64,000 nt of DNA from an uncultured Clostridia bacterium (lineage in GTDB: Bacteria > Bacillota > Clostridia > TANB77 > CAG-508). The translations under genes were made by a program, and so were the position numbers. The stretch lies in NCBI GenBank assembly GCA_947306755.1, contig CAMZHI010000003.1:6489-70488 (forward strand), read 5' to 3'. This document shows positions 12,046 to 31,300 of the stretch, one piece after another (positions within the stretch are counted from its first letter, which is position 1; every line of letters starts with the position of its first letter). Below the pieces are notes generated by a model, which worked only from the letters and a program-made list of their open reading frames with translations, had not been told where the DNA came from and made no database searches.

Positions 12046-12061
12046 ATAAATTGTAATTTAT
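12046..12061. repeat. Junction motif copy a (ATAAATTGTAATTTAT)
   Basis: Exact AAATTGTAATTT at 12048-12059. Its reverse complement supplies the TAA stop of gene 12058..12738. Confidence 0.8.
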
Positions 12062-12738
12062 TCTTCTCTCAAAAAAACATTTAACTTATTATAAAAATCT
12101 TTGCTATTAAAAATATAATTACAATGACCTGATTTTTCTAATATAAATAGTTTTGAATTTTTAATACTATTTGAAATATATTCTGCTTCATCTCTTGGAA
12201 CTAAATCTTTAATCCCCCCATTACAAACTAATGTAGGAATGTTGATTGTATTTAGTTCTTCTTTAGTTATAGAGTGTGATTCAAAATTTAACTTTTCAAA
12301 CATTTCATTACTTTTTTTACCTGGATACCAAGGTATTTTTTCCATAATTTTAGCATAATTAGGTTTTTCTATAACATTATTTCTTGCCACTCCACTACAA
12401 ATAACTAATTTTGATATACTATCTGGATAACGTATTGCAACATTTAATGCAACTGTTCCACCACCACTACAACCTAACAAAATTGGTCTATCCAAATTTA
12501 ATTTCTTTATAAACTCATAAACATCTTTTGCTGATTCCTCATAAGTTAATGTGCAATTTTTTTCGCTTTTACCACAACATCTTCTATCAAAAATATATAC
12601 TTTATACTTATCTTTTAATCTATTTGCAATAAATTTCATTAATCCTGTATTTACACTATTAGGATTTAACAAAATTATTGATTTTCCTTCTCCTAAAACT
12701 TCATAATGAATTTTTATATTGTTCACAATTATATCCAA
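12058..12738 (-). CDS. Alpha/beta hydrolase
   Basis: Nucleophile elbow LLGCSGGG and a C-terminal SGHC histidine region. 226 aa. Confidence 0.7.
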   Translation of the reverse strand: MDIIVNNIKIHYEVLGEGKSIILLNPNSVNTGLMKFIANRLKDKYKVYIFDRRCCGKSEKNCTLTYEESAKDVYEFIKKLNLDRPILLGCSGGGTVALNVAIRYPDSISKLVICSGVARNNVIEKPNYAKIMEKIPWYPGKKSNEMFEKLNFESHSITKEELNTINIPTLVCNGGIKDLVPRDEAEYISNSIKNSKLFILEKSGHCNYIFNSKDFYNKLNVFLREE

Positions 12739-12759
12739 ATTAATCTCCCCTACAACTTA

Positions 12760-12852
12760 CTATTTTTTGTTTGGTAAACCTTTACAAGTAATATTATCTA
12801 ATAAATCTAATTGTTCTAATATATACTCTTTATATTCTTTTGATGTTGCCAT
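12760..12852 (-). pseudogene. TfoX/Sxy N-terminal fragment (30 codons)
   Basis: Own translation gives MATSKEYKEYILEQLDLLDNITCKGLPNKK*. It matches the usual TfoX_N start (..SKEY.E.ILEQL..L..IT) and then terminates. Confidence 0.45.
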
Positions 12853-12863
12853 AATTAAATCTC

Positions 12864-12992
12864 CTAATTACATTTTCCACACCATCTGCAACCATTACAG
12901 CTATTTCTTCTTTTACAAGTTTTACATCCATGCCAAGGATTCCATATATCATTCATTTTATTATTATTTCCTTAATAGAACTATATCTTATT
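12864..12992 (-). pseudogene. Internally deleted copy of the DUF5131 gene plus its upstream region
   Basis: 12871-12928 is identical to 33173-33230 (the 3' end of gene 33154..33987). 12929-12992 is near-identical to 33959-34024 (5' end plus leader). The fused frame reads MNDIWNPWHGCKTCKRRNSCNGCRWCGKCN*. Confidence 0.8.
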
Positions 12993-13048
12993 TTTCTTAT
13001 TCATTATATTACATATTTATAAAAAATAAAAGACTCTCCTAGAATATT

Positions 13049-13073
13049 AAAAAGCAGGGATATTTCACCCTGC
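13049..13073 (-). terminator. Rho-independent terminator
   Basis: Stem GCAGGG / CCCTGC with T-runs on both strands, directly after the stop of ORF 13080..13511. Confidence 0.6.
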
Positions 13074-13079
13074 AATTTT

Positions 13080-13511
13080 TTATCTCATCCAGCTTACCCA
13101 TGAATGATTGGCTGTTATTAAATGTTCTATTGCTTTATCAATATTCTCAATCACTTTGTCGCTTTCAACTATCGTATTTATTTCATCTTCAGTTAATTCT
13201 TTAAATTCCACACTTATTTTTAAATTAGTTATTACTATCTTTTTAAAGTTATCATCCATTAATTCTAATGTTTCCTTTTTATCTAATAATCTGTTGTCTT
13301 CTAATTGTTTATAACATAGGCATAAAAGTTTTAGATATAATTCATTTTCTAATAATTCTTGTTTGTGATTCTTTAAGAATCTTAATAACTCATTATAATT
13401 GTAATTATTCTTTCTTAATCGGTTATAACCGACATTTTTTCTTAAATTATTTCGATAAATTGTAATTTTTAGTTCTAATACTTGTTTGCAATACCAAAAT
13501 CTTGTTAACAT
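13080..13511 (-). CDS. Hypothetical protein (K/E/L-rich, helical)
   Basis: 143-aa ORF followed by a terminator. Its first ~25 codons lie inside a repeat that occurs in truncated form at 15214-15274 and 31251-31300, so coding status is uncertain. Confidence 0.4.
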   Translation of the reverse strand: MLTRFWYCKQVLELKITIYRNNLRKNVGYNRLRKNNYNYNELLRFLKNHKQELLENELYLKLLCLCYKQLEDNRLLDKKETLELMDDNFKKIVITNLKISVEFKELTEDEINTIVESDKVIENIDKAIEHLITANHSWVSWMR

Positions 13512-13514
13512 CTC
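13454..13514. repeat. Junction motif copy b with extended ~60-bp repeat
   Basis: GATAAATTGTAATTT at 13454-13468, followed by GTTCTAATACTTGTTTGCAATACCAAAATCTTGTTAACATC. About 85-90 percent identical to 15214-15274. Confidence 0.8.
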
Positions 13515-13535
13515 AATAAATTTATCTTTCAGAAT

Positions 13536-15098
13536 TTATATGTTGTTATACTTATTTCTTTTAATTATAAAAGCTACAATTATTGTAGCAACTATTACAG
13601 TACCACAACTTACTGGTATTATAATTCCAGCATTAGGAAGTATTGTTTTAGCAGTAGTTGTATCTGTATTAGTTTCTAAAGACGTTGTTGCACCTTTGTA
13701 ATTAGTAGATGTTATTGCTGTACCATTTACATATAAAGTATGTCCGTTTAAGTTAATATTGCTATTATCTGAAACATCATTATTCAAAGATGTTATATAA
13801 GAATCTCCTGTTAAAGTTATGCCAGAACTACTATCTAATGTAATATTAATTGCTTTAGCTGTATTATCACTATTGATTGTTCCTGAATAACTACTTCCAT
13901 TTTTTAATGATAAATCTAATGTAGAAATATTATCAACTAAAATATCTCCTTCAATTTTTTGATTTTTTGCATTTAATGTAACATTTCCACCATTTGAACC
14001 TGATGTTCCCCATTTTGCTGCTCCTATTTTTAAAAATCCACCATCAGCATCATTATTTATTATTTCATTATTTTCTAGTTCAATAACTGTACTTGTATTA
14101 GTAACAAATATTATCTCGCCTTTATTATTTACTATTTTAGAATCTTTTGCAGTAAATGCCGATGTTCCCACATCAGCATCTCCTGACATTGATTGATATA
14201 TAAATATAGATTTATATGTTTCTGAATTTCCATTTAATTTTGTGTTTGTTGCTTCCATTGTTACATTATTTAAAGTTACAGAATTTTTTCCCTCTACAAC
14301 TACACCTTCTGAAGCTGTTGATGTTAAATTTGCATTATTTACCGTTATGTCTGCTGTTGAATAAATTACAGGTGAACCTGTTCCATGTGATGTATAAGTA
14401 CCACCATTTACAGTTAAAGTTCCTCCTCCTCTATCACTTCTTATTGGTGCTGATGAATTTCCATCTGTTTCTGCTGTTACATTATTCGCTGTTAAAGTTC
14501 CTCCTCCAGTTACCATTACAGCTCCTGAATTATTGCTTGATGTTTTAATATTGGTATCTGAAATATTTATTGTTCCATTTGAATAAGCAAATACACCATT
14601 TGCATGTGATCCATTTGTTGTAACATTTCCACCATTAATGTTTAGTGTTCCTTCTTTTACTAAAACAGCTGCATTAGTTCCATAAAAGTCAGAATTATCT
14701 CCATCTGAATCTCCTGATTTGGTAACTGTTGAATTTGAAATAGTTGATGTTCCACCTGTTACTAATAAAGCATTTTGAGAACCTGCCTCCGAAGAATAAG
14801 TTTGTCCATTATTTGTAGTATCACTTGATATTTCAGTTGCTCCTGTATGTGATACATTGCTACTTCCATTGTTTCCTCCTGGAGCTCCTTTATTTCCATC
14901 TGGTTTATTTGGTGGTGTTCCTCCATTTGAACTTGACATTTCTCCACTTGGCTTATCTGGTGGTGTTCCTCCATTTGAACTTGACATTTCTCCACTTGGC
15001 TTATCTGGTGGTGCAGCAAAAACTACTGTATAATTTAATGTTAATGTCAAAATAACAACAATAGATAAAATTGTTTTTGTAAATCTTTTCATATACAT
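13536..15098 (-). CDS. Secreted beta-helix, carbohydrate-binding (Cthe_2159-like) surface protein with a C-terminal sorting-signal-like anchor
   Basis: Signal peptide, duplicated PPDKPSGEMSSSNGGT, and G/N/T-rich repeats (GGTLT..NGG). The C-terminal LPNAG plus hydrophobic helix plus KRNK resembles an LPxTG-type signal. Family assigned from memory. Confidence 0.6.
   Translation of the reverse strand: MYMKRFTKTILSIVVILTLTLNYTVVFAAPPDKPSGEMSSSNGGTPPDKPSGEMSSSNGGTPPNKPDGNKGAPGGNNGSSNVSHTGATEISSDTTNNGQTYSSEAGSQNALLVTGGTSTISNSTVTKSGDSDGDNSDFYGTNAAVLVKEGTLNINGGNVTTNGSHANGVFAYSNGTINISDTNIKTSSNNSGAVMVTGGGTLTANNVTAETDGNSSAPIRSDRGGGTLTVNGGTYTSHGTGSPVIYSTADITVNNANLTSTASEGVVVEGKNSVTLNNVTMEATNTKLNGNSETYKSIFIYQSMSGDADVGTSAFTAKDSKIVNNKGEIIFVTNTSTVIELENNEIINNDADGGFLKIGAAKWGTSGSNGGNVTLNAKNQKIEGDILVDNISTLDLSLKNGSSYSGTINSDNTAKAINITLDSSSGITLTGDSYITSLNNDVSDNSNINLNGHTLYVNGTAITSTNYKGATTSLETNTDTTTAKTILPNAGIIIPVSCGTVIVATIIVAFIIKRNKYNNI
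14911..15006. repeat. Perfect 48-bp tandem duplication inside the surface-protein gene
   Basis: GGTGGTGTTCCTCCATTTGAACTTGACATTTCTCCACTTGGCTTATCT occurs twice, with partial units on both sides. It encodes the duplicated PPDKPSGEMSSSNGGT. Confidence 0.9.
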
Positions 15099-15213
15099 CT
15101 TCCTTTATTTTTTTAATTTATATTAAATATATTAAACAAACATTAAAATAACATTGAAAACTTTAATTTTTCATCATAACTTATTCGTATTTTCCAAATA
15201 TTCCGATAATTTT

Positions 15214-15274
15214 GATAAATTGTAATTTTTTGTTCTAATACTTGTTAACAACACCAAAATATTGTTAACATCTT
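15214..15274. repeat. Junction motif copy c with extended repeat
   Basis: GATAAATTGTAATTT at 15214-15228, followed by GTTCTAATACTTGTTAACAACACCAAAATATTGTTAACATC. Lies between genes 15279.. and ..15098. Confidence 0.8.
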
Positions 15275-15278
15275 AATC

Positions 15279-16265
15279 TTATTTTATACTTTTTCTTATA
15301 AATTCTTCTATTTTATCAAATGGTATAATATCTTTTTGGTCATACAAATCACAATGTGAAGCACCTTCTATTGAAAGAAATTCCTTATTATTTGCATATT
15401 TACTATCTTTAATCATATTTTCATAAGCATCTTTTCCAAAATAATATGAATGCGCTTTATCTCCATGCACTATCATTACTGCATTTCTTATTTCTTTTGC
15501 ATAATAGAATAATCTTGTATTTAAAAGTGATGTTCCTGCTGTAATATTCCATCCTCCATTAGAATTCAAACTTCTCTTATGGTATCCACGAGGAGTTTTA
15601 TAATATGCATAGTAATCTTTTACAAATTGTGGTGCATCTTCTGGTAGTGGATCTACAACTCCTCCACCTAATTTATATTCTCCTGCTTTAAAATCTTCTG
15701 TTCTTTGATTATTTATTGCTACTCTTTTATTATATCTTGCTTCTTCACTATCTTCTCCATCAAAATATCCATTCCCTGTAACTCTTGACATATCATACAT
15801 TGTTGATGCAATTGTAGCCTTTATTCTAGTATCTATACATGCTGTTTGAATAGCCATTCCACCCCAGCCACATATACCAATTATTGATATTTTTTCACTA
15901 TCAACATTTTCTAAATTTGACAAAAAGTCAACTGCTGATTGGAAATCTTCAACATTTATGTCTGGAGAGTTCATATATCTTGGTTCTCCTGTACTTTCTC
16001 CTGTAAAAGATGGATCAAATGCTATTGTTAGAAACCCTCTTTCTGCCATTTCTTGAGCATATAATCCTGAACTTTGTTCTTTTACTGCTCCAAAAGGTCC
16101 ACTTACTGCTATTGCAGGAAGTTTTCCATCATATTCTTTTGGGACATACATATCAGCTACTAATGTAATTCCAAAATGATTTTTAAAAGTTACTTTTTTA
16201 GACTCAACTTTTTCACTCTTTGGGAATACTTTATCCCATTCTTGATTTAATTTTAATTCTTCCAT
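15279..16265 (-). CDS. Alpha/beta hydrolase, dienelactone-hydrolase-like
   Basis: 328 aa. GICGWGG resembles the G-x-C-x-G nucleophile motif of the DLH family, and there is a C-terminal His (GASHCDLY). Confidence 0.6.
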   Translation of the reverse strand: MEELKLNQEWDKVFPKSEKVESKKVTFKNHFGITLVADMYVPKEYDGKLPAIAVSGPFGAVKEQSSGLYAQEMAERGFLTIAFDPSFTGESTGEPRYMNSPDINVEDFQSAVDFLSNLENVDSEKISIIGICGWGGMAIQTACIDTRIKATIASTMYDMSRVTGNGYFDGEDSEEARYNKRVAINNQRTEDFKAGEYKLGGGVVDPLPEDAPQFVKDYYAYYKTPRGYHKRSLNSNGGWNITAGTSLLNTRLFYYAKEIRNAVMIVHGDKAHSYYFGKDAYENMIKDSKYANNKEFLSIEGASHCDLYDQKDIIPFDKIEEFIRKSIK

Positions 16266-16285
16266 ATCTTAAATTCCTCCATATT

Positions 16286-16924
16286 TTAAATTCCTAATTT
16301 ATTTAACCAACTATCAACTTTACTGCTTTGGTCAGAAACCATATCTCCACCACGAATTGGTAATCCCTCAAGAACCTTTGCTTTTGGTTCTAATTTTTGA
16401 ATATCTTCATAAGTTCCTGAACTTCCTGAACCTTCATGAGTATTAAATGGTATTATGGTTTTGTCTGCAAAGTCATAATTATCAAATAATGTGTACATAG
16501 CCATTGGCATTTGATACCACCAAATTGGATATCCTATAAATATAGTATCATAATCATCTAAATTGATATTTAATGTTTTTAATTTTGGTCTATCATCATT
16601 CTCTTTCTCTTTTTTAGCATCATCTACTAATTCATTATAATCTGTTGGATATACTTTTTCTGTTTCAATTCTTATAAAATCTCCTCCAACTTTATCACTT
16701 ATAAGTTTTGCCAATTTTTGAGTATTTCCTGTTTCAGAAAAATAAATAACTAATATTTTATCACTATTTAAATTTAATTTTGCTTCTTTTCCTTGCTCAT
16801 CAGTAATTGTTGAATCTAAAGTTTGATTTTCTTCTGTATTAATGTTTTTAATAATAACAGCTCCTAATACTCCAACAACAACTAATGCAATTAAACAAAT
16901 AATTATTATTTTAACTTTATTCAT
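16286..16924 (-). CDS. Membrane-anchored flavodoxin-family protein
   Basis: N-terminal TM helix, then LVIYFSETGNTQKLA and GYPIWWYQMP flavodoxin motifs. Confidence 0.75.
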   Translation of the reverse strand: MNKVKIIIICLIALVVVGVLGAVIIKNINTEENQTLDSTITDEQGKEAKLNLNSDKILVIYFSETGNTQKLAKLISDKVGGDFIRIETEKVYPTDYNELVDDAKKEKENDDRPKLKTLNINLDDYDTIFIGYPIWWYQMPMAMYTLFDNYDFADKTIIPFNTHEGSGSSGTYEDIQKLEPKAKVLEGLPIRGGDMVSDQSSKVDSWLNKLGI

Positions 16925-17592
16925 AGATTATTCCTTCTTTCCCCAGTTTTCCACTTTATAATTTTCTCAATATTATAAGTAATTATTGATACTCCAAATA
17001 TTATCATAAAATTATTCCATAATGAAATCCAAATATTGTTTGTATAATTGCCAAATGATGCTTTTGCAATTAAATAATTAATTATATTTGTATCAAAGAA
17101 TAGTTTTATTCCATAGATTACAATTAATATTTGCAATAAATCCACTATATATTTTAAAATTTTATTCTTTTTTACTTTGCTAATTAACTTTGCAAAAATT
17201 GCTTTAAAATGTAATCCCAAATGCATTGACAAAAATATCATTCCCCAATAGCTAAAAAGTATATGGAGTTTACTAACTACTGCTCCATTAGAAATACTAA
17301 AAAAACTAAATAATTCTTTTGATATTGGTATTCCTAAAATTATTGTAAATAGCATAAATATTAAAAATCCTATATCAACAATTGTTAAGAAAGCTCTTGA
17401 AGAATTATATTTCCCTTTAAATAAATTTCTATAAAAATTTATATTTAAAATATTATGTATGATAAATAATATTAATAATACAATTCCTAATATTTCATGA
17501 ATTAATTGTCCTGTATATATTTTAGAATATTCTAATATCATAAATATAAACATTAAAAAATCTACTATTATTCTATATGCTTTATTTTTCAT
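16921..17592 (-). CDS. DUF4405-like integral membrane protein
   Basis: 223 aa, about 6 TM helices with conserved His residues (HEILG, HNILN, MHLGLH). Overlaps the flavodoxin gene by 4 nt. Confidence 0.5.
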   Translation of the reverse strand: MKNKAYRIIVDFLMFIFMILEYSKIYTGQLIHEILGIVLLILFIIHNILNINFYRNLFKGKYNSSRAFLTIVDIGFLIFMLFTIILGIPISKELFSFFSISNGAVVSKLHILFSYWGMIFLSMHLGLHFKAIFAKLISKVKKNKILKYIVDLLQILIVIYGIKLFFDTNIINYLIAKASFGNYTNNIWISLWNNFMIIFGVSIITYNIEKIIKWKTGERRNNL

Positions 17593-17603
17593 ATCATATC
17601 CTT

Positions 17604-18212: not shown

Positions 18213-18228
18213 TAATCTCACCTCCAAA

Positions 18229-18771: not shown

Positions 18772-18827
18772 TTTTTAATTCCTCCTATTTATTTACTTAT
18801 TTTCAATTAATTCCATTTTCCTCTCCT

Positions 18828-19475: not shown

Positions 19476-19487
19476 AACTTAAACTCC

Positions 19488-19724: not shown

Positions 19725-19783
19725 TTGTTCTTAACTCTCCTTTATTTTTTCAATTACATTATACTTTACTTTATTACAATTGA

Positions 19784-19799: not shown

Positions 19800-19813
19800 A
19801 TATGTATATATAA

Positions 19814-19842: not shown

Positions 19843-19869
19843 GTTTTTGATTTTTAAGGAGTGAAATGT

Positions 19870-20799: not shown

Positions 20800-20830
20800 A
20801 TCATTTATTTAATATAAAATTTTATTTTTT

Positions 20831-20879
20831 TGTTCTCAATATCAAAATATTATAATCTAATTGCTAAATTGTAATTTAT
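20831..20879. repeat. Junction motif copy d
   Basis: Exact AAATTGTAATTT at 20866-20877. Its reverse complement supplies the TAA stop of gene 20876..21328. It is preceded by TGTTCTCAATATCAAAATAT, which resembles the extended repeat. Confidence 0.7.
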
Positions 20880-21328
20880 CTCTTTTTATATACAATTATT
20901 TCTGGATTATCACCATTTGGTCCATATTCACTTACAAGTATAAAATCCATATTTGCAACTATTCCAAAACATCTGATGATTTCTCCATCATTAAATTCAC
21001 TTTCTACTTGATTACCCAAATAAATATCGTTATCATCTAATAATTGAACTGTTTTACCATTCGGAATAGGATAATCTAAATTTACAAAGCAACCATTTAA
21101 TGGGTTTAAATCTTTTATTTTAGGCATACCTGGAATATCCAAACTGTTTATTTCATTTAATAATTGTAATTTAAATGCCTCATAATTATCTTTTCCACCT
21201 GTTAATATATATTTTGCAATAAAACATTGTTTTCCAAATGGGCATCCCCCAGTCACCTTACATCCCTTACAATTGTTGTTTTTTCCATAACCACAATTAC
21301 TGCAATTAGCTCCGCATATTGATTCCAT
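20876..21328 (-). CDS. DUF3795-like Cys-rich protein
   Basis: The N-terminal CGANCSNCGYGKNNNCKGCKVTGGCPFGKQC cluster is typical of DUF3795 (from memory). Confidence 0.5.
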   Translation of the reverse strand: MESICGANCSNCGYGKNNNCKGCKVTGGCPFGKQCFIAKYILTGGKDNYEAFKLQLLNEINSLDIPGMPKIKDLNPLNGCFVNLDYPIPNGKTVQLLDDNDIYLGNQVESEFNDGEIIRCFGIVANMDFILVSEYGPNGDNPEIIVYKKR

Positions 21329-24866: not shown

Positions 24867-24937
24867 TCTTCTTGCTCCTTTCAATTTTAATTATAGTAAA
24901 ACAAGTTTGATTTGTCGTTGGATTAATATTACACAAC

Positions 24938-24953
24938 ATTACAATTTTGTAAT
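24938..24953. promoter_or_regulatory. Candidate BceR-type response-regulator box upstream of the ABC genes
   Basis: ATTACAATTTTGTAAT is a perfect palindrome, about 40 nt upstream of a TATAAT read on the minus strand. The same 14-mer TTACAATTTTGTAA occurs at 26697-26710. Confidence 0.55.
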
Positions 24954-24969
24954 ATTATGTACTTTTTCA

Positions 24970-25986
24970 TTACATTGCTCCTTTGTAAATATTATTTTTA
25001 CCAAATTCTAGTATTACTTTAGTATATTGATTTTCTTTGCTTTCAATACTAATATTGTGACCTAGTTTGTCACATAATTTCTTAATAATATATAATCCCA
25101 TTCCAGTTGATTTCACTTTATCTCTCCCATTTGTTCCAGTAAAAGATTTATCAAAAACTCTTTTTAAATCTTTTTCGGGGATACCTATTCCATTATCATA
25201 TATTTCTAGTATCACTTTATCTTTATTTTCTGAGCTTTCTATTTTTATAATTGATTCACTTTCTTTTTTATATTTAATGCTGTTATTAATAATTTGATTT
25301 ATTATAAACTCTAGCCATTTTTTATCAGAATTTGCACTAGTTGCTTTCAAATCAACTTCAAATTCTATATTGTTTTCAAGTAAATCGTCTTTATTTTTTA
25401 AACTAATATTTCTAACTACTTCTTTTAAATCAATTTCTGTAATTATAAAATCTTTTTCTGTATCTTCTGATCTAACATAATAAAGAATTTCATCTATATT
25501 ATTGTCTAGTCTCCTAATCTGACTTAAAAAAGATTTATCATACTTTTCTGGATTATTATGACATTTTAGAACCATACTTGAAATAGGGATTTTAGCTTCA
25601 TGAATCCATATCTCAACAAATTCTTTAAAATCATTAATGTTTTTTTGACTTATCTTTATGTTTTCTATCATTGATTTATTTATTTCATATAATGAATTAA
25701 CCATTATTTTCTCTTCATATGTAGTTGGCTCTGGCAGCGTTTCTAATATTAAAAACTTCTTATCAAGCTTTTCAAGATTATCCATAAATAATTTATAAAA
25801 CTTATTTTTTCTTATATAGCTAATAGCTAATATTAGCACTCCACTTAAAATAAAAAATATAAATGTTATTATTAATGCAATGCTTGGTGTTTTAAATGCA
25901 GCAAGCATTAATGCTATTAAGCTTGCAGTTACTAAATAAATTACTATACCTATTAAATTATCTTTTACATATTTTAAAAATTTCAT
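24970..25986 (-). CDS. BceS-type sensor histidine kinase (two TM, no sensing loop)
   Basis: Two N-terminal TM helices with a minimal loop, an H-box (IWIHEAKIP), and N/G boxes (NSIKY, DNGIGI, GTGMGL). Confidence 0.85.
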   Translation of the reverse strand: MKFLKYVKDNLIGIVIYLVTASLIALMLAAFKTPSIALIITFIFFILSGVLILAISYIRKNKFYKLFMDNLEKLDKKFLILETLPEPTTYEEKIMVNSLYEINKSMIENIKISQKNINDFKEFVEIWIHEAKIPISSMVLKCHNNPEKYDKSFLSQIRRLDNNIDEILYYVRSEDTEKDFIITEIDLKEVVRNISLKNKDDLLENNIEFEVDLKATSANSDKKWLEFIINQIINNSIKYKKESESIIKIESSENKDKVILEIYDNGIGIPEKDLKRVFDKSFTGTNGRDKVKSTGMGLYIIKKLCDKLGHNISIESKENQYTKVILEFGKNNIYKGAM

Positions 25987-26645
25987 ATTATTCTATATCC
26001 TATTCCTTTTCTTGTTTCTATAATATTATCATATCCAAGCTCAGAGAGTTTTGCTCTTAATCTGCTTATATTAACAGTTAAAGCATTTTCGTTTATATAT
26101 TCATCATTATTCCAAAGGTCAGTCATTATCTCATCCTTTGATACTATTCTGTCTTGATGATTTAAAAGCAAACTAAAGATTATTATTTCATTTTTAGTTA
26201 ATATCACTTCTGCATTTTTATTCTTCACTATTCCTTTTCCAATATCAAAGCTTAAATCTTTATATGAAATAATATTTGAATTTAGCTCACACCTTTTAAA
26301 AATAGCTGCAATCTTTAATAATAATATCGTTGGATTATATGGCTTTATTATATAATCATCTGCTCCATAAGAATAAGACAATACTTCATCAGTTTCGGAA
26401 GTTTTACTTGTAACCATAATAATAGGAACATTTGATTCTTTTCTTATCTCTTTTAGCAAAATTTCTCCGTTTAATATTGGAATATTAATATCAAGTAATA
26501 TAAGGTCTACTCCAGATTTTAATATTTCATTTTTAGCATTTTTGAAATCAGTTAATATAATTGCTTCATAATTTGAGCTTTTTAATAAATTATATAATTC
26601 TTCTGCTATAACTTTATCATCTTCGACTATCATTATTTTTTTCAT
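25983..26645 (-). CDS. OmpR-family response regulator (BceR-like)
   Basis: Receiver domain (MIVEDD...DLILLDINIP) plus a winged-helix output (LTKNEIIIFSLLL...RKGIGYR). Confidence 0.9.
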   Translation of the reverse strand: MKKIMIVEDDKVIAEELYNLLKSSNYEAIILTDFKNAKNEILKSGVDLILLDINIPILNGEILLKEIRKESNVPIIMVTSKTSETDEVLSYSYGADDYIIKPYNPTILLLKIAAIFKRCELNSNIISYKDLSFDIGKGIVKNKNAEVILTKNEIIIFSLLLNHQDRIVSKDEIMTDLWNNDEYINENALTVNISRLRAKLSELGYDNIIETRKGIGYRII

Positions 26646-26691
26646 TATGTTTAGACCTCCAAATTAATTATATCACACTTTTTATGAAAAT

Positions 26692-26713
26692 AACCTTACA
26701 ATTTTGTAAGGTT
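26692..26713. promoter_or_regulatory. Second BceR-type box (also a potential hairpin) upstream of the RR-HK operon
   Basis: AACCTTACAATTTTGTAAGGTT has a perfect 9-bp stem, about 22 nt upstream of a TATAAT read on the minus strand. Confidence 0.5.
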
Positions 26714-26751
26714 AAAATTAAAAATATTTTAGTATATAAATCCCTCTATTT

Positions 26752-26767
26752 AAATTGATTGTAATTT
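26752..26767. repeat. Degenerate junction motif copy e
   Basis: AAATTGATTGTAATTT, 4 nt from the stop of gene 26771..27484. Confidence 0.4.
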
Positions 26768-26770
26768 GTA

Positions 26771-27484
26771 TTAATGTTTTTTATAATTAATATTCGCTAA
26801 TTTTGCTTGTTTACACAAATCTTTTGTTTGAATCTTATATTTCTCTCCATCTTTTATAGTATAAGTTCCACATTGTCTAAATTCAAAATCTACATTTTTT
26901 CTTATACATTGTTCTCTAATATCTAATGCCCATTCATAATTGAATACTCTAGCATTTACATCTGATTCTCCTCCAACTACAACAAGTTCAATATCATCAA
27001 GATACTTTTCAATGTCTATTTTCTCTAATAATGGCTGTGCTGTTATACATTTATGTTTTATTGGTAAATCTTTAAAAATTGATAATTTAGAATCTGCATT
27101 TTTTTGATTTTCAATCGTACAACATACAACTACATTATCGTATCCATCTTCCCAATCATCTGGAATACATTTCATAAATCTATCAATTCTTTTTGTTAGA
27201 AATAAAAAAGTACACTCCTGCCTTTCTTTAATCATTTTCCAACAGTCTTTTCTCCACTCATCTGCTTCTTCTATTAGAAAATCAGTAGAAAAACATAAAT
27301 AAACAATTCCTGATTTCATCTTATAATTTCTGTTTTTTAATTTTTCTATTGGCTTTTCAAAATCTTTTGTCTTTACAATATTACTTGTATCTATATTTCT
27401 TTTTAAATCACCCTTATGAATGTAGCAATGTAGACAACCATCACTACATTTTTTACATCCTCGCCACGGATTCCACATTGCCAT
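26771..27484 (-). CDS. DUF5131 (phage Gp37/Gp68-like) family protein
   Basis: The N-terminus MWNPWRGCKKCSDGCLHCY is the family hallmark. Paralog of 33154..33987. Confidence 0.7.
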   Translation of the reverse strand: MAMWNPWRGCKKCSDGCLHCYIHKGDLKRNIDTSNIVKTKDFEKPIEKLKNRNYKMKSGIVYLCFSTDFLIEEADEWRKDCWKMIKERQECTFLFLTKRIDRFMKCIPDDWEDGYDNVVVCCTIENQKNADSKLSIFKDLPIKHKCITAQPLLEKIDIEKYLDDIELVVVGGESDVNARVFNYEWALDIREQCIRKNVDFEFRQCGTYTIKDGEKYKIQTKDLCKQAKLANINYKKH

Positions 27485-27497
27485 AATAAGCTCTCCT

Positions 27498-28001
27498 TTA
27501 TATATTATAATTTCTTGTTCTTATATAATTTCCTTCTTGTACTGCAGCAAATGTTGCAATACTGCATATGATAATTTCAAATATTATTGAATTAGTATTA
27601 GCTATTATAAAAGGTGTTATAAATAATATGAATCCTGTTATTTTGTTTGCAGTGGTATGTAATAATACTAATTTTTTGTAACAAATATAAGCACATATTA
27701 CATTAGTAACTTTTATTAAAGCAATAATAACTGTCCATATAATTATTCCCTTAGATAAATTTAAAGCAGGTAATATTTTAATAATTGCCACAATAACAAA
27801 TATTATATCAGATGCACTATCTAATCTAGCTCCTAGCTTACTTTCATTTTTACTTTTTCTTGCAATAAATCCATCTAGTATATCTGATATACCACAATAA
27901 ATATATATTATATAAAATGGGAAAGAAAATGTTTCTGAAATAGCTAATATTATTGACATTATTATTCTGCTAATAGATAAATAATTTGCTATATTTTTCA
28001 T
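27498..28001 (-). CDS. CDP-alcohol phosphatidyltransferase family protein
   Basis: DILDGFIARKSKNESKLGARLDSASD matches the D-G-x2-A-R-x8-G-x3-D-x3-D signature. Polytopic membrane protein. Confidence 0.75.
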   Translation of the reverse strand: MKNIANYLSISRIIMSIILAISETFSFPFYIIYIYCGISDILDGFIARKSKNESKLGARLDSASDIIFVIVAIIKILPALNLSKGIIIWTVIIALIKVTNVICAYICYKKLVLLHTTANKITGFILFITPFIIANTNSIIFEIIICSIATFAAVQEGNYIRTRNYNI

Positions 28002-28216
28002 TATATCCCACTTTCTATTTTTTGTATTAAAACATATTTCTCTTTTATTGATATTTTTACAACTTCATAGCCATATTCTAATAATTCTTTTTTGTATTTT
28101 AAAAATGAATGATCAATATCAAATCCTAAAATATTTCTTATTTCTTCATAAGGAATTTGATATTTTGCTTTTTGATTATCTTTAATGTATTTCCAAAATG
28201 GCTCATATTTACTCAT
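28001..28216 (-). CDS. Small hypothetical protein
   Basis: ORF 28001..28222 with start at MSKYEPFWKYI after GAGGT. Abuts the downstream gene. Confidence 0.45.
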   Translation of the reverse strand: MSKYEPFWKYIKDNQKAKYQIPYEEIRNILGFDIDHSFLKYKKELLEYGYEVVKISIKEKYVLIQKIESGI

Positions 28217-28233
28217 ATACATACCTCATAAAT

Positions 28234-28710
28234 TTATATTTCTATCAAACTCTTTTCAAAATCTTTAACATAGTATTTTATATTTTTTGTGCCTTTTGAA
28301 ATAATTGTGTGTCCTTCTTCTTCAAGTAATCTTTTTTGTAGTTCTATTGCCTCTGGATATTTAACATTTAATTCCCCATCTGATTTTAAAGTTCTCCAAT
28401 ATGGTGTAATATCTTCGTTTCTTTGATAACTAGCCCAAGCAACAATATTTACAAATATACCTGCTGTCATAGGATCAGTAAAATCAGCATTATTTTTCTT
28501 TGCTAAATAATCTCTCATTTGACTAACTGTGATAAGTTTTCCTTTTGGAACTTTTTTCATTAGTTCATCATAATAATGTGGTGGTGCAAAAAACATTTTA
28601 GTTCCACCATATTTTCTTATAGTCTTTTCATCTTCAACAATTTGAATTTTAGGCATATCCTTATTGTTTTTCATCATAGCGTTAAAATCTTTTTTACTCT
28701 CATTAGACAT
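28234..28710 (-). CDS. MGMT-family (alkyltransferase DNA-binding-domain-like) protein, no obvious PCHR active site
   Basis: The pattern KGKLITVSQMRDYLA...TPYWRTLKSDGELN resembles the MGMT DNA-binding domain. The catalytic Cys motif is not seen. Confidence 0.45.
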   Translation of the reverse strand: MSNESKKDFNAMMKNNKDMPKIQIVEDEKTIRKYGGTKMFFAPPHYYDELMKKVPKGKLITVSQMRDYLAKKNNADFTDPMTAGIFVNIVAWASYQRNEDITPYWRTLKSDGELNVKYPEAIELQKRLLEEEGHTIISKGTKNIKYYVKDFEKSLIEI

Positions 28711-28805
28711 ATTCTTATCTCTCCAATCTAAACAACAAATTACTATTTTTCTTTATACTACATGTTAACAATATTACTTATATTATTACTTAAATTCTGC
28801 TCATC

Positions 28806-28824
28806 TTTATAAATTGTAATTTAT
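28806..28824. repeat. Junction motif copy f
   Basis: Exact AAATTGTAATTT at 28811-28822. Its reverse complement supplies the TAA stop of gene 28821..29336. Confidence 0.8.
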
Positions 28825-29336
28825 TGTGATAATTCAAAATCAATTTCATACTTATCATCAACTAAAATATATCTTTGATTATACTTTTTACACATTTCTA
28901 AATTAGCATTATTCTCTTTTATTAGTTCTTCTTGTGATATATCCTCAAATTTTCTGCTTTCTATTGTATTACTATACATTTTAATATCAGAAAAATGTGT
29001 TCTAATATAGTTTTCTGTCATTATTAAACAAACATATTGTATTTTCTTTAAATACTCATCTTCAAAAGATTCTTTCCAATTAAAAGGAATGTAACATCCT
29101 TCAATAATAATATTTTGATTGTTTTCTATATTTGTTTTTATAATTTCTTTAACTATATTCCATAAATAATCTGTTAGTTTATCATCATCTTCTACTGTCA
29201 ATTGAGTATTTTCACTTCTTATTAGTCCCATCTTTAAATGATCTATTGATAAATATGGATATTTATACTTTTCTAATAGTTTTTGTGCTAATAAAGTTTT
29301 GCCTGTATGTGAACTTCCAGCTATTAAAATAACCAT
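28821..29336 (-). CDS. P-loop NTPase / kinase-like protein
   Basis: Walker A GSSHTGKT at the N-terminus. 171 aa. Confidence 0.55.
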   Translation of the reverse strand: MVILIAGSSHTGKTLLAQKLLEKYKYPYLSIDHLKMGLIRSENTQLTVEDDDKLTDYLWNIVKEIIKTNIENNQNIIIEGCYIPFNWKESFEDEYLKKIQYVCLIMTENYIRTHFSDIKMYSNTIESRKFEDISQEELIKENNANLEMCKKYNQRYILVDDKYEIDFELSQ

Positions 29337-29354
29337 AACTCCCTCCCATAGAAA

Positions 29355-29473
29355 TTACTATTTTATTGTATCTTTTATATCGCAATTTATTTTGCTTTTT
29401 ATTATATCAACTATAATTTTTGTATTTCCCGTATAAGAATAATATACTAATAATGTTTTTATTTTTTCTCCAT
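29355..29473 (-). pseudogene. Flavodoxin N-terminal fragment
   Basis: Own translation (after an interrupted MEKK*) gives KTLLVYYSYTGNTKIIVDIIKSKINCDIKDTIK. This is the flavodoxin FMN-loop motif, without the rest of the protein. Confidence 0.5.
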
Positions 29474-29510
29474 TCTAAATTATTTTAATCATTTTTTCAC
29501 TTTTCATATA

Positions 29511-29630
29511 TTAATATCCTAAACCTTTTAACCAATTTTCTACTGTACTTCTTGAGTTTTCTTGTCTTGCTTTTTTTCCTTGTATTGCTAATCCATTTGT
29601 ATTAACTGTACTTGTTTTCATTTTATTCAT
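29511..29630 (-). pseudogene. Flavodoxin remnant (start codon joined to C-terminal tail, 39 codons)
   Basis: MNKMKTSTVNTNGLAIQGKKARQENSRSTVENWLKGLGY*. The tail parallels LAIRGADCKNARNKIESWI of gene 29643..30167 and SKVDSWLNKLGI of gene 16286..16924. Confidence 0.5.
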
Positions 29631-29642
29631 TATTAATCACTC

Positions 29643-30167
29643 CTATATCCAACTTTCTATTTTATTACGAGCATTTTTGCAATCTGCACCTCTAATAGCT
29701 AAACAATCATTTAATACATTTGCTCCTTTGCATATTCTTTTTACATCACTTGGTACACTTGCGAGTCCAGAGCCTTCATGTGTTGTTACTATTCGAATAG
29801 TTTTTCCTGTGAAATCTAATTCTCTTAGAGCTGTTTCAAGTTCTGGTGCATATGTTCCCCAATATATTGGTGACATTATATAAATAACTTCATATTCTGA
29901 TATGTCTGAAATATTTTCTTTGATTGGTGCATTTCCCACCCTTTGCTTTGCCTCTTGAATGCAAGTATTATAATCTGCTGAATATGGTACCTGTGGCTCT
30001 ACTTTAAATAAATCTGCACCTGTAATATCTCTTACATATTCTGCAATATATTCTGTGTTTCCTTTATCAATATAACCAACTGCATAATTTTCATCTGCTC
30101 TTGAAAAGTATATAACTAAACTTTTCTTATCCTTATAACTTTCTTTGTTTCCTCCAAATAATCCCAT
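29643..30167 (-). CDS. Flavodoxin-family protein
   Basis: LVIYFSRADENY, IYWGTYAPE and THEGSGLAS motifs. Confidence 0.7.
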   Translation of the reverse strand: MGLFGGNKESYKDKKSLVIYFSRADENYAVGYIDKGNTEYIAEYVRDITGADLFKVEPQVPYSADYNTCIQEAKQRVGNAPIKENISDISEYEVIYIMSPIYWGTYAPELETALRELDFTGKTIRIVTTHEGSGLASVPSDVKRICKGANVLNDCLAIRGADCKNARNKIESWI

Positions 30168-30182
30168 TTTAATATCTCCCTT

Positions 30183-30563
30183 CTAATATGATGATGCTTT
30201 AGATTGTTTAATAATCCAAGTATCATTTACCTTTTCTAATAATACATCCTGTCTTAACTTCCACCATGATTTGCCAAATCCAAATGGAGAAGCAAGTGTT
30301 TTAGTTTTTCCAATTATTGTAGCCCTATCTCGATCTATATTTACTTCAATACTTTCATGAATTGATTCATAATAATTTAACTCTCCACTTAAAACTGAAT
30401 TTATATAATCTTGTTTTGATTGCCTTTTTCCCGTCATGTGAATAAGAACATAATCATCTGCAAGTATTTTATTTAATGTATCTACATCCTTATATATACT
30501 TGCATCACATAATTTTATATATAGTTCTTTAATAATATCTTTATCTTCCATATTACTTTTCAC
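30183..30563 (-). CDS. NTF2-like (SnoaL/DUF4440-type) protein
   Basis: 126 aa with an alpha+beta cone pattern (LADDYVLIHMTGKRQSKQDYI). Weak assignment by eye. Confidence 0.4.
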   Translation of the reverse strand: MKSNMEDKDIIKELYIKLCDASIYKDVDTLNKILADDYVLIHMTGKRQSKQDYINSVLSGELNYYESIHESIEVNIDRDRATIIGKTKTLASPFGFGKSWWKLRQDVLLEKVNDTWIIKQSKASSY

Positions 30564-31134
30564 CTTTCATATAAGGTTTAATTGCAATTAATATAAATTC
30601 TGTGGTTGTTTTCAAATGTTCTTGAGGGTCATACTTTTTGTCTGTCATGCACCAATTAAGCATCATTCCATAAATTGTATTTATAATGAAGCCCACTAAT
30701 TCTTCTATTGGTGTGTCCTTTTTTAGTTCTCCATTTTCTATGCTAGATTTTAATAACATTCTTATGCATTCAGAGTCATACCCTATTTTATCTAGCTCTA
30801 CTGGTTTTAAATTATTGACTATCCATTGTCTACATATTTCAACACCACAAGATTGAATTTGTTTCATTAATTCTTTATTAAAATATTCGATTTTATCTTT
30901 TAAAGGCTTATTTAACAATTCATCTTCATATTTTATATGTTTTTTTGAAACTAATTCTCCTATTATTTCTTCTTTTGTTTTGAAATATGTGTAAAAAGTT
31001 CCTTTTGCAACTCCAGCTTCTTCTGTTATATCTTGAATAGATGTTTCTCTAAAACCCTTTTTAGATATTACTTTTTTTGCAGCCTCAATTAAGTTTTCTC
31101 TAGTTTTTAAGGCTAATTCTTGCCTCATTGTCAT
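30553..31134 (-). CDS. TetR/AcrR family transcriptional regulator
   Basis: ORF 30553..31182. Start at ATG (MTMRQELALKTRENL), 9 nt after GGAGGTG. HTH is TSIQDITEEAGVAKGTFYTYFKTKEE. Confidence 0.8.
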   Translation of the reverse strand: MTMRQELALKTRENLIEAAKKVISKKGFRETSIQDITEEAGVAKGTFYTYFKTKEEIIGELVSKKHIKYEDELLNKPLKDKIEYFNKELMKQIQSCGVEICRQWIVNNLKPVELDKIGYDSECIRMLLKSSIENGELKKDTPIEELVGFIINTIYGMMLNWCMTDKKYDPQEHLKTTTEFILIAIKPYMKGEK

Positions 31135-31211
31135 TTGAACTATCACCTCCATTTTTCCACAGTATATCATTTTGTTGAACAAAAGTCAATGAACTTTATT
31201 CAACTTAATAT

Positions 31212-31236
31212 AAAAAAAAAGAGAGAAAATTCTCCC
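31212..31236 (-). terminator. Rho-independent terminator
   Basis: The minus strand reads GGGAGA-ATTT-TCTCTC followed by T9. Confidence 0.65.
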
Positions 31237-31250
31237 TTTAAAGTTTTATT

Positions 31251-31300
31251 TTGTTAGGAATGCCAAAATCTTGTAAACATCTTTATAAATTGTAATTTAT
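31251..31300. repeat. Junction motif copy g with partial extended repeat
   Basis: TTGTTAGGAATGCCAAAATCTTGTAAACATCTTTATAAATTGTAATTTAT. Exact 12-mer at 31287-31298, 9 nt after the stop of gene 31309... Confidence 0.8.

Follow-up and report, generated by a model that had tools for sequence, protein, structure and literature searches.

A palindromic 12-mer probably marks the 3′ boundary of exchangeable gene cassettes in uncultured Clostridia

Results

We analysed a 64,000-nt stretch of DNA from an uncultured Clostridia bacterium (hereafter the window), in which the palindromic word AAATTGTAATTT occurs at 12048, 13457, 15217, 20866, 28811 and 31287. As the first-pass annotation had reported, all six copies are in a single orientation (+ strand). 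Its guess of fewer than one chance occurrence per window also agrees with our estimate of 0.25, and six copies were attained in 0 of 100 dinucleotide-preserving shuffles. The word is the top repeat among the non-trivial 12-14-mers of the window. On the coding (minus) strand it reads A[TAA]ATTACAATTT, and in this orientation the motif (M3′, AAATTACAATTT; wider form GATAAATT-AC-AATTTATC) terminates open reading frames.

12048..12059, minus strand: solitary M3′ core, not followed by a dyad; its TAA ends the hydrolase cassette ORF
13457..13468, minus strand: core, the second (downstream) one of a docking module
15217..15228, minus strand: core between two tandem docking units
20866..20877, minus strand: M3′ core, its TAA the stop of 20876..21328
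26752..26767, minus strand: degenerate core ACAAATTACAATCAATTT, immediately next to the stop of 26771..27484
28811..28822, minus strand: M3′ core, its TAA the stop of the AAA/kinase-like cassette ORF
31287..31298, minus strand: M3′ core, 10 nt past the stop of the DUF4256 ORF (31309..)
46568..46579, plus strand: near-copy AAATTACAATTC with the same TAA phasing, the stop of plus-strand ORF 45970..46569

The 12-mer had been proposed to mark stop codons. This description holds for the copies at 12048, 20866 and 28811, whose TAA ends ORFs 12058..12738, 20876..21328 and 28821..29336, and approximately for that at 31287; the degenerate copy and the near-copy in the opposite orientation were likewise found where they had been annotated. 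It does not hold for 13457 and 15217, which touch no stop. They belong to a longer repeat unit as its second core; the unit itself begins directly after the stops of 13536..15098 and 15279..16265. The anticipated bias towards gene ends was observed across ~0.6 Mb of related, de-duplicated low-GC loci, where a co-oriented ORF stop lay at most 30 nt upstream of 35 of 58 AAATTACAA[GT]TT sites, compared to 0-3 of 55-76 for control words.

A mirrored counterpart of M3′, missed in the first-pass annotation, lies 4-25 nt ahead of the ribosome-binding site of unrelated genes. This motif (M5′, AAATAGTAATTT) is, as read from the sequence, complementary to M3′ at 11 of 12 positions. It is present in three exact copies (0.17 expected), and two one-mismatch variants before start codons bring the number to five. 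In the same ~0.6 Mb, a ribosome-binding site and start codon followed ATAGTAATTT in 17 of 39 sites (controls 0-2 of 15-49).

12058..12738, minus strand: alpha/beta-hydrolase cassette ORF, 226 aa, with M5′ and M3′ on its two sides
12754..12765, minus strand: M5′ variant AAATAGTAAGTT, whose TAG ends an upstream truncated TfoX-like gene; GTAGGGGAGATTAAT and the hydrolase's TTG start come next
28737..28748, minus strand: M5′ AAATAGTAATTT; the ATG of 28234..28710 follows at 26 nt, with ribosome-binding site GGAGAG between
28821..29336, minus strand: AAA/kinase-like cassette ORF, 171 aa, with a 98% identical protein in six other contexts
29352..29363, minus strand: M5′ AAATAGTAATTT, then CTATGGGAGGGAGTT and the ATG of the AAA cassette
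31309..31845, minus strand: DUF4256 cassette ORF
31856..31867, minus strand: M5′ AAATAGTAATTT, directly after the MntP stop
32465..32476, minus strand: M5′ variant AAATAGTAATAT, ahead of MntP (31874..32446); its first two bases also end the stop TAA of 32475..33104

The DUF4256 ORF probably starts at the ATG at 31845 or 31839, both of which follow the ribosome-binding site GGAGG; a TTG at 31857 was considered and is disfavoured. Cassette cargo includes CAT, Vat-like, Mac-type and hexapeptide acetyltransferases, an ABC-F-type ATPase, a beta-lactamase-fold protein, hydrolases and DUF proteins, and it is likely that some cassettes carry drug-resistance genes. The CAT unit has direct M5′ repeats at both bounds. 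The window also contains a TnpV gene.

The third part of the system, also overlooked initially, is a ~32-nt dyad beside four of the cores. Together with the palindrome GATAAATTTATC, the 13-8-13 dyad ACTTGTTAACAAG-ATTTTGGT-ATTGTAAACAAGT (three copies, 0.00 expected) forms a docking module of ~61 nt. The boundary element first described is real and belongs to a system with three or more parts (3′ core, mirrored 5′ core and docking dyad).

13481..13512, minus strand: docking dyad ('arm') GATGTTAACAAG-ATTTTGGT-ATTGCAAACAAG
13515..13526, minus strand: putative empty target, palindrome GATAAATTTATT, lying 9 nt past the stop of 13536..15098 and 3 nt ahead of the dyad
15170..15216, minus strand: degenerate second dyad, the homologue of that in locus L183
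15241..15272, minus strand: docking dyad GATGTTAACAAT-ATTTTGGT-GTTGTTAACAAG, directly after the stop of 15279..16265
20830..20865, minus strand: degenerate dyad after core 20866..20877
28749..28810, minus strand: inter-cassette M3′-M5′ spacer with the dyad mostly deleted; a AAGTAATATTGTTAAC box and GTATAAAGAAAA are retained, as in L184 and L209
31250..31281, minus strand: docking dyad GATGTTTACAAG-ATTTTGGC-ATTCCTAACAAA, then a terminator-like hairpin

The same parts were found in ~50 loci from metagenome-assembled genomes of low-GC Clostridia and from metagenomes; most of these loci (L132-L226) were retrieved by a pattern from the element itself, so that their number and the downstream consensus are ascertainment-biased, whereas position relative to genes is not. 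Evidence for mobility obtained without selecting on the motif comes from the 171-aa product of 28821..29336. A 98% identical protein occurs in six different contexts, in one of which it is flanked by the housekeeping genes lepB and rbgA, and the DNA common to these contexts starts at (A)ATAGTAATTT in M5′ and ends at AAATTACAA in M3′. A homologue in L236 (75% amino acid identity) has both motifs; the homologues of cultured Clostridium butyricum and Paraclostridium (72-74% nucleotide identity) have neither. The end of MntP with its M5′ (31856..31867) is joined to three different partners, in the window, L231 and L188, and L206 carries five sites on one strand with every gene co-oriented.

Pairwise comparison of 29 related loci and the window supported the proposal that cassette boundaries carry a recombination core: the edges of conserved blocks fall at the element, with long blocks of 95-99.7% identity ending at +30 to +34 or starting at -10 to -24 from the dyad. 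For example, L183 and the window are 96% identical along 2.5 kb and part just past the 15217 element, where the window has one more tandem unit. Pairs with a common downstream flank had the same right half-site (0 differences in 10 pairs) and different left ones; pairs with a common upstream flank differed in the right half-site at a mean of 3.3 positions. An additional assortment point lies after AAATTACAA. Among the compared loci we found no circular cassette junction and no matched empty and occupied pair at one orthologous locus.

The first-pass annotation had suggested looking for a recombinase that co-varies with the motif; across the ~50 loci, no recombinase or transposase showed a consistent link to the sites. 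Only 7 of the ~50 loci have a tyrosine integrase within 8-13 kb, at no fixed position, and serine recombinases are near three contexts. None of the 29 ORFs preceded by M5′ resembled a recombinase or transposase by sequence or Pfam match (the Pfam scan covered 10 of them and the window's own).

Discussion

Taken together, we favour with moderate confidence a model in which the 12-mer is the 3′ boundary of small, mostly promoterless cassettes, moved most plausibly by site-specific exchange at a near-palindromic site. Uncultured Clostridia of gut and rumen would, on balance, be swapping these cassettes between genomes. A cassette would start at M5′, with a ribosome-binding site and start codon within 4-25 nt, and would end at M3′ or a few bases before it; cassettes would stand singly or in co-oriented arrays, often beside a docking module. 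A trans-acting DNA breakage-and-joining enzyme would cut inside the near-palindromic site, and insertion, excision and exchange of ORFs and spacer modules would follow.

The window and L193 both hold the putative empty site GATAAATTTATTGAGATG. Between the empty site as reconstructed, AAAGATAA/ATTTATTGAG, and the ends of the cassettes, ATAGTAATTT...AAATTACA, only AAT is shared, and the excision junction is expected to read AAATTACA-AT-AGTAATTT. Because the shared core is short and the 7-2-7 dyad has an asymmetric centre (AC/GT), a recombinase with a 2-3-bp crossover, the serine-recombinase pattern, would appear to fit better than one with a 6-8-bp overlap. Junctions look alike under a 2-3-bp crossover and under a target duplication of 0-3 bp. 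Moreover, M5′ and M3′ around each ORF are inverted rather than direct repeats, an arrangement that counts against the model, since a simple excision and integration cycle would not predict it.

The main rival, which we regard as possible but clearly the less probable, treats the cassettes as non-autonomous transposons akin to mobile insertion cassettes, with 10-bp terminal inverted repeats (ATAGTAATTT / AAATTACAAT) mobilised by cut-and-paste by a DDE transposase in trans. Targets would be AT-rich palindromes duplicated by 1-3 bp, and full solitary cores such as GATAAAT-TAC-AATTTATC would be excision footprints; indeed, a gene followed elsewhere by core and dyad has a solitary core in one place. 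The inverted motif copies around each ORF agree at 9 of 10 positions, the moving unit is the ORF only, and perfect variants (L008, L206) end in TGTAATTT...AAATTACA, the TG...CA type usual for DDE elements. The empty GATAAATTTATC and the occupied site differ by exactly this unit, and AT or AAT could be the target duplication, although such a duplication is not demonstrable from the junctions and left flanks are highly variable, with AA alone constant. However, we found no autonomous element with such ends, 0 of 29 M5′-preceded ORFs are transposase-like, and the end of the sole IS30-like gene, in one locus, lacks the motif. Many junctions are also one site common to two ORFs, and this, like the direct M5′ repeats of the CAT unit, is better accommodated by site-specific exchange.

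We consider it improbable that the motifs are selected expression signals, with M5′ a leader element before the ribosome-binding site, M3′ and the dyad protein- or RNA-binding elements in the 3′ UTR, and the mosaics products of ordinary recombination in cargo regions of mobile elements. M5′ does always lie in the 5′ leader just ahead of the ribosome-binding site, in some spacers directly after a promoter-like -35/-10 pair; M3′ and the dyad stand in many loci between the stop codon and a terminator-like hairpin, and the M5′/M3′ complementarity would permit transcript pairing. Yet 12 bases are too short for homologous recombination and homology breaks there in many independent pairs, while functional homologues in cultured Clostridium do without the motifs. 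The 3′-end RNA element offered as an alternative by the first-pass annotation also fared poorly: a search of the element returned no Rfam family, it folds no better than shuffles, and the dyad stem (an internal hairpin) shows no compensatory changes across the compared loci. It is, if anything, slightly harder to believe that the ~61-nt repeat is itself the mobile entity, a REP- or MITE-like selfish element inserting after stops, with genes passive and breakpoints arising from independent insertion and decay. Partial, single and tandem unit copies, the extra unit of the window relative to L183, the near-inverted ends of core-dyad-core and a position directly after stops in ~20 of 30 loci would all suit such an element. 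It would nevertheless leave M5′ before start codons and the ORF-only mobile unit unexplained; full units have no visible target duplication, and no empty and filled pair with identical flanks was found among the compared loci. In L197 the element is missing from an S15-hydrolase homologue, whose neighbours differ as well.

The literature searched contained no description of such a cassette system. Integron cassettes with their attC sites share compact ORFs, mostly promoterless and each with its own ribosome-binding site, that form co-oriented arrays, a boundary motif over or beside the stop codon, inverted short core sites around the ORF (analogous to R′ upstream and R″ downstream), a bilaterally symmetric inter-cassette element of 35 to ~130 nt, and cargo rich in acetyltransferases and other accessory genes. 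The cores differ, being AAATTAC / GTAATTT here and RYYYAAC / GTTRRRY in integrons, and no IntI-type integrase, attI or Pc adjoins the arrays. The hosts also differ, being Clostridia; complete integrons were absent from all Firmicutes genomes in a 2016 survey (PMC4889954). Single-strand folding is weak here (-10 to -12 kcal/mol for the two full-length spacers, z ~ -2.4). Finally, the ORF is not tied to its downstream element, and therefore both of its sides are exchange points.

The pdif (XerC/XerD) modules of Acinetobacter plasmids and other Xer-exploiting elements are small accessory or resistance modules with short dyad sites that alternate in orientation. Small modules bounded by a short dyad site are also seen here, and both arms of the docking dyad match the Firmicute XerD arm, TTATGTAAACT, at 8 of 11 positions. 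The dyad can be read as 11-6-11 (TGTTWACAAGA-TTTTGG-TATTGTAAACA; dif geometry from PMC5357621). Unlike in pdif modules, all sites are in direct orientation, many junctions lack a dyad, and the cassette ends lie in a separate 16-18-bp palindrome beside it. Mobile insertion cassettes and MITE-like elements, such as MIC231 of Bacillus cereus, carry passenger genes without a transposase between short terminal inverted repeats and are presumably moved in trans. The present units share this organisation, but their ends measure only ~10 bp and lie against the ribosome-binding site and the stop codon, the same ends recur on dozens of different single-gene units, and we found no parent insertion sequence that carries them. 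Large serine recombinases (Tn4451 TnpX, SCC Ccr) are encoded on the moving element beside one end and typically use att sites of 40-50 bp. Their sites are likewise dyad-symmetric with an asymmetric central dinucleotide, the reconstructed identity between donor and target (AAT) is similarly short, and some of the elements studied here (L001-L006, L163, L181) also contain TnpV and large serine recombinases, with TnpV present in the window as well. In contrast, the units described here are single genes without a recombinase, and the conserved site is shorter. If the exchange model is correct, cassette exchange resembling that of integrons would take place in Clostridia, a class of Firmicutes, the phylum in which the 2016 survey found no complete integrons.

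A repeated 12-mer closes open reading frames

The window has a G+C content of 26%, and its minus strand carries nearly all genes of 0-34 kb. The most repeated non-trivial 12-14-mer was AAATTGTAATTT, which occurred six times, always on the plus strand (0.25 copies expected; six were reached in 0 of 100 shuffles). Read on the minus strand this sequence is A-TAA-ATTACAATTT, here termed M3' or the core. The wider core, GATAAATT-AC-AATTTATC, forms an 8-2-8 (or 7-2-7) dyad with an asymmetric centre. The copies and their neighbours are as follows.

12048, plus strand: exact core; its TAA is the stop codon of ORF 12058..12738
13457, plus strand: exact core, the second core of a ~61-nt unit (see below)
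13515-13526: perfect palindrome GATAAATTTATT, standing in place of a first core
15217, plus strand: exact core, likewise the second core of a ~61-nt unit
20866, plus strand: exact core; its TAA is the stop codon of ORF 20876..21328
Adjoining the stop of ORF 26771..27484: degenerate core copy
28811, plus strand: exact core; its TAA is the stop codon of ORF 28821..29336 (the AAA gene, 171 aa)
31287, plus strand: exact core, 10 nt beyond the stop of ORF 31309..
45970..46569, plus strand: ORF whose stop comes from a near-copy of the core

The first-pass annotation had reported the six exact copies, the three stop codons formed by their TAA, the degenerate copy and the near-copy that ends the plus-strand gene, and each was borne out. 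The observation is real, and the feature is wider than was reported there, comprising a mirrored motif and a dyad besides the core.

Homologues of the hydrolase at the first core with 85-99% identity, found in three different contexts, retain a core at their stop; it is missing from a homologue of 77% identity. A Tn4451-like element in L001-L006 (~8200-13400), which encodes TnpV, a 636-aa large serine recombinase and Mob_Pre relaxases, carries a hydrolase homologue of 85% identity, with the core variant GAAATTAAAAGTTATCG after the hydrolase stop.

A mirrored motif marks the 5' end of a mobile ORF unit

Homologues of the AAA gene were gathered by protein, not by motif. One 98%-identical AAA protein was found in six contexts, the window included; in the other five it follows an MFS gene (in a housekeeping region), CAT, a hexapeptide acetyltransferase, MntP or an AAA_14 gene. 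The DNA common to these contexts is a compact unit, (A)ATAGTAATTT-CTATGGGAGGTAGTT-ATG ... CACAATAAATTACAA, which begins 15-16 nt ahead of the ATG, a stretch that accommodates a ribosome-binding site but no promoter. The AAA cassette precedes four unrelated downstream elements, the break falling after AAATTACAA.

The 5' end of the unit, AAATAGTAATTT (M5'), equals the reverse-complemented 12-mer except for one change, and the inverted ends ATAGTAATTT ... AAATTACAAT agree at 9/10 positions. Three exact copies of M5' were present in the window (0.17 expected) together with two one-mismatch variants, all just ahead of a ribosome-binding site and start (MntP, DUF4256, the AAA gene, 28234..28710 and the hydrolase of the first core). 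Across ~0.6 Mb of related DNA, M5' was followed by a ribosome-binding site and start at 17/39 de-duplicated sites (controls 0-2 of 15-49), and M3' lay at most 30 nt after a stop at 35/58 sites (controls 0-3 of 55-76). Among 29 distinct ORFs preceded by M5', 15 had M3' within 45 nt of the stop.

The cargo includes acetyltransferases (CAT, Vat-like and Mac-type), an ABC-F-type ATPase, a beta-lactamase-fold protein, an ICMT-like methyltransferase, DUF4180, DUF1697, DUF4256, MntP and an alpha/beta hydrolase; the part of it that was scanned showed no recombinase. Spacers from M3' to the next M5' are variable, being absent or consisting of a conserved 35-nt hairpin AAATTACAATAAATAAGTGAGATTAATAGTAATTT, dyad modules, or a terminator plus promoter. 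The CAT unit carries direct M5' repeats at both ends and contains the 35-nt hairpin. At window 12760-12852 a TfoX-like gene is reduced to 30 aa (MATSKEYKEYILEQ...GLPNKK), and its stop TAG falls inside M5'; in L147, L169, L189 and L204 this gene is intact (99 aa) and leads a unit of two genes.

The two motifs are not intrinsic to the genes. AAA homologues of Clostridium butyricum and Paraclostridium (72-74% nucleotide identity) have neither, an 85% homologue has a degenerate dyad only, and a 75% homologue in an ICE-like region has both. Between lepB and rbgA, L227 carries 2.4 kb of accessory DNA relative to L239, and the AAA unit is part of it. Homology between L227 and L238 begins at AATTGGTTTCC, within the motif-like ATAAATTGGTTT at the rbgA 5' end; L238 and L227 belong to one species, and the L238 contig stops 47 nt short of rbgA and so offers no empty-site comparison there. 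The insert (L227 4073-6530 against L239 4000/4001 and L238 1-140) comprises an MFS gene, a 103-aa ORF and the AAA cassette. The first nine rbgA codons are replaced, and a leader segment of ~25 nt is duplicated on both sides.

A putative docking dyad adjoins the core

Four cores of the window are adjoined by a ~32-nt dyad, GATGTTWACAAG/ATTTTGGT/ATTGTAAACAAG, of which three copies were counted against 0.00 expected. The full unit of ~61 nt runs core, CAA, dyad, TATTAGAAAG, and can stand in tandem. Where the core is lacking, the left flank of the dyad is AACTTG, giving the 13-8-13 site ACTTGTTAACAAG/ATTTTGGT/ATTGTAAACAAGT; the dyad can also be read as 11-6-11 (TGTTWACAAGA/TTTTGG/TATTGTAAACA). All dyads within any one locus lie on the same strand. 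No terminal duplications were evident around full core-dyad-core units. In L008 (10679-10790) and L135 (~1724-1770) the core and a perfect inverted copy of it surround a G+C-richer insert of 85 nt and 16 nt, respectively.

Homology between loci breaks at the element

A scan with the dyad pattern, taking one genome per species, returned 74 loci. About 30 of these were low-GC 'Clostridia bacterium' or 'Clostridium sp.' metagenome-assembled genomes (MAGs), many from ruminant gut, with the whole core-plus-dyad element; the high-GC matches are chance. Scanning metagenomes with core plus dyad added 21 further loci, arrays among them. Arrays were found in the window, L206, L215, L218 and L226. In L206 five sites stand on a single strand at 2.7, 2.8, 5.1, 7.7 and 9.3 kb, with every gene co-oriented. 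A co-oriented ORF ended 16-29 nt ahead of the dyad, that is, at the core, in ~20/30 loci; loci L132-L226 were picked by patterns drawn from the element itself. The comparison DNA consists mostly of MAGs and metagenome contigs, where mis-binning of mobile DNA is possible. Viral contigs scanned with the 16-mer core were saturated with single chance matches and gave no match to core plus dyad, while plasmid and phage collections contained no match to the window region or the 82-nt unit. A look-up of the window protein 15279..16265 gave no exact record.

Pairwise block comparison of 29 loci and the window placed crossovers as bracketed intervals. Long near-identical blocks end at +30..+34 from the dyad in L147/L204 (99.7%, 1.9 kb), L173/L200, L167/L199 and L136/L192, and blocks begin at -10..-24 from it in L161/L193 (98%, 2 kb), L147/L161 and L199/L201. 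Window 15165..17667 matches L183 at 96% and diverges just beyond the element; at the 15217 element the window has one tandem unit more than L183. Where two loci have the downstream flank in common, their right half-sites are identical and their left half-sites differ; where the upstream flank is common, it is the right half-sites that differ, which therefore places one exchange point within the ATTTTGG spacer. Another lies after AAATTACAA. The segment KTTATYRAGATGTTWACAAK and the upstream gene assort independently, and solitary cores follow genes that elsewhere bear core plus dyad (L136 against L188; L184 against L173, L200 and L198). The main proposal of the first-pass annotation, a recombination core at cassette boundaries, thus holds, since homology blocks between loci break at the element.

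The RNA form of its alternative, a conserved element at 3' ends, lacked support. Rfam gave no match at the gathering score, no tRNA was found, RNA folds (z-scores +2.1 to -1.6) were no better than shuffles, and A/T variants of the dyad stem showed no compensation, so the structured-RNA reading was rejected. As single-stranded DNA, the state in which an integron recombination site forms a stable imperfect hairpin, the two full-length M3'..M5' spacers folded weakly (z ~ -2.4, -10 to -12 kcal/mol), the 35-nt junction gave z -2.3 and -3 kcal/mol, and the truncated window spacer was not significant (z -0.4). In the centroid fold of L209, M3' paired with M5' and box A with box C. The core was also considered as a promoter, where TACAAT could be a -10 box, but a conserved -35 at usable spacing is absent. 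A short ORF, M[LF]T[RI]FW..., starts in the left dyad arm (for example window 13512-13470, with ~60 copies in related loci) and is 7-27 codons long. As a leader or small peptide it was rejected: its ATG/TTG is kept, but every change is non-synonymous and in-frame stops interrupt some of the copies, so it is probably not coding.

Comparison with known systems

In its workings the system is similar to integron cassette arrays, with which it shares promoterless ORF cassettes that all point the same way. The attC core sites of integrons read RYYYAAC (R'') and GTTRRRY (R'), whereas the boundary cores here, AAATTAC(AA) and (ATA)GTAATTT, do not follow that consensus. No integrase adjoins the window array, and the platform that integrons have beside their first cassette, an IntI-type tyrosine integrase with attI and Pc, does not accompany it; integrases 51116..52312 and 61325..62539 are of phage-integrase type and far from it. 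An integron ORF moves with its own downstream attC by a single R' crossover, whereas ORFs here are not so linked, with the CAT unit as a partial exception. A 2016 survey found complete integrons absent from all Firmicutes genomes (PMC4889954).

Xer/pdif modules resemble the docking dyad in geometry only (11-6-11), and their sites alternate in (inverse) orientation, in contrast to the single strand seen here. The site in pdif modules is similar to the dif of the host chromosome and is cut by host XerC/XerD; the arms of the dyad match the Firmicute XerD arm at 8/11 positions. The dif-type site spans 28 bp, with two 11-bp arms in partial dyad symmetry about a 6-bp centre (PMC5357621). Mobile insertion cassettes and MITEs resemble the system in having inverted ends without a transposase, and the sites of large serine recombinases do so in their symmetry. 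REP/BIME elements, which have a cognate RAYT transposase, are short, imperfect palindromes scattered between genes throughout a genome; core copies are grouped in 12-32 kb of the window, with none in 0-12 kb, in the 64 kb covered of this genome. A full-text literature search with the motif sequences and related concepts returned no description of such a system.

A model for cassette exchange and its rival

Most probably a trans-acting enzyme that breaks and joins DNA uses the motif as its site and so exchanges ORF units as well as spacer modules. The empty site is reconstructed as AAAGATAA/ATTTATTGAGATGTT (window, L193), or in other notation AAAGATAA/ATTTATTGAG and AAAGATAAATTTATYRAGATG, and the occupied site would read AAAGATAA/ATAGTAATTT...ORF...AAATTACA/ATTTATYRAGATGTT. 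An excised circle, with the cassette 3' end joined to its own 5' end, would read AAATTACA-AT-AGTAATTT. Cassette ends and target have only AAT in common, and therefore the junctions fit a 2-3-bp crossover or a 1-3-bp target duplication equally; empty and occupied sites are compatible with a duplication of 0, 1 (A), 2 (AT) or 3 (AAT) bp. The 7-2-7 dyad with its asymmetric centre and the very short common core favour a serine-type recombinase, and the 13-8-13 dyad, geometrically like the core site of a tyrosine recombinase, may serve for docking or as a second place of exchange.

A serious rival is a DDE transposase working on terminal inverted repeats. M5' and M3' are inverted around each ORF, perfect variants have TG...CA-like ends, and on this reading full solitary cores such as GATAAAT-TAC-AATTTATC would be footprints that cut-and-paste transposition left at once-occupied sites. 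However, no autonomous insertion sequence with the same ends was present among the motif-flanked ORFs, and an IS30-like fragment was found in L236 only, its end without the motif. That fragment (L236 12032-12513, HTH_38 plus rve) lies 5.5 kb from a cassette in an ICE-like region with ArdA, RadC and TnpV, and ~0.6 Mb of related loci contain no other gene of this kind. In ~50 related loci integrases were rare and at no fixed positions, and the integrases, TnpV and serine recombinases near some of them kept no fixed distance, position or orientation; no responsible enzyme was identified in the window or related loci.

The motif was rejected as an att site of the window integrases, as the only good direct repeat nearby is a different 17-mer in a tRNA fragment. 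This repeat, GACCTTCGGGTTATGAG, stands at window 34113-34129 and 62659-62675. The second copy lies in a tRNA 3' half (CAT anticodon loop to CCA end; minus strand, ~62612-62675) directly after integrase 61325..62539, and the two are probably the att sites of an integrated element of ~28.5 kb. Its cargo comprises TnpV, Fic, a Schlafen-like helicase, AbiU2, MazG, a C5-methylase with a Bpu10I-like nuclease, a phage replisome organiser and the second integrase, 51116..52312. GC skew and gene orientation switch sign near 52 kb (~50-54 kb), inside this mobile-element region, with no replication genes nearby.

Three DUF5131 copies occur in the window (12868-12995, 26771-27484 and 33154-33987); the first is an internally deleted remnant, 95-98% identical to both ends of 33154..33987, and L173 and L197 have 90%-identical homologues close to the element. 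A flavodoxin-like pseudogene, in pieces (9195-9499), occupies the gap after gene 9500..10255, whose homologue in L184 is followed by core plus dyad, while the window copy is not. ORF 13536..15098 encodes a surface-protein-like product of 520 aa with no Pfam match, and a 48-nt tandem duplication (14895-14990, 92% identity) lies in its signal-peptide-proximal Pro/Gly-rich part.

Implications for gene flow in Clostridia

The feature is best filed as cassette-type gene mobility. A fuller reading, which we put forward tentatively and rate below even chances, is an integron-like gene-capture system of low-GC Clostridia with its own sites (a palindrome of 16-18 bp that occurs in two orientations, and the 13-8-13 docking dyad) and a dedicated recombinase encoded away from the arrays. 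It would assemble and reshuffle promoterless cassettes among rumen and gut species, with likely genes for chloramphenicol, streptogramin and ABC-F-type resistance among them.

Integron-type cassette systems drive resistance-gene assembly in Gram-negative bacteria, and the present system may fill the corresponding gap for Firmicutes. In uncultured gut and rumen Clostridia, single-gene units of a standard build, with the same junction motifs at their 5' and 3' ends, recur across genomes and contexts. If a dedicated enzyme moves these units, gene flow within a major resistance-gene reservoir would have a new route, and the enzyme and its site would possibly be a new pair of recombinase and site. 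M5', M3' and the dyad would then provide an immediate handle in searches for further cassettes and, via co-occurrence, for the enzyme.
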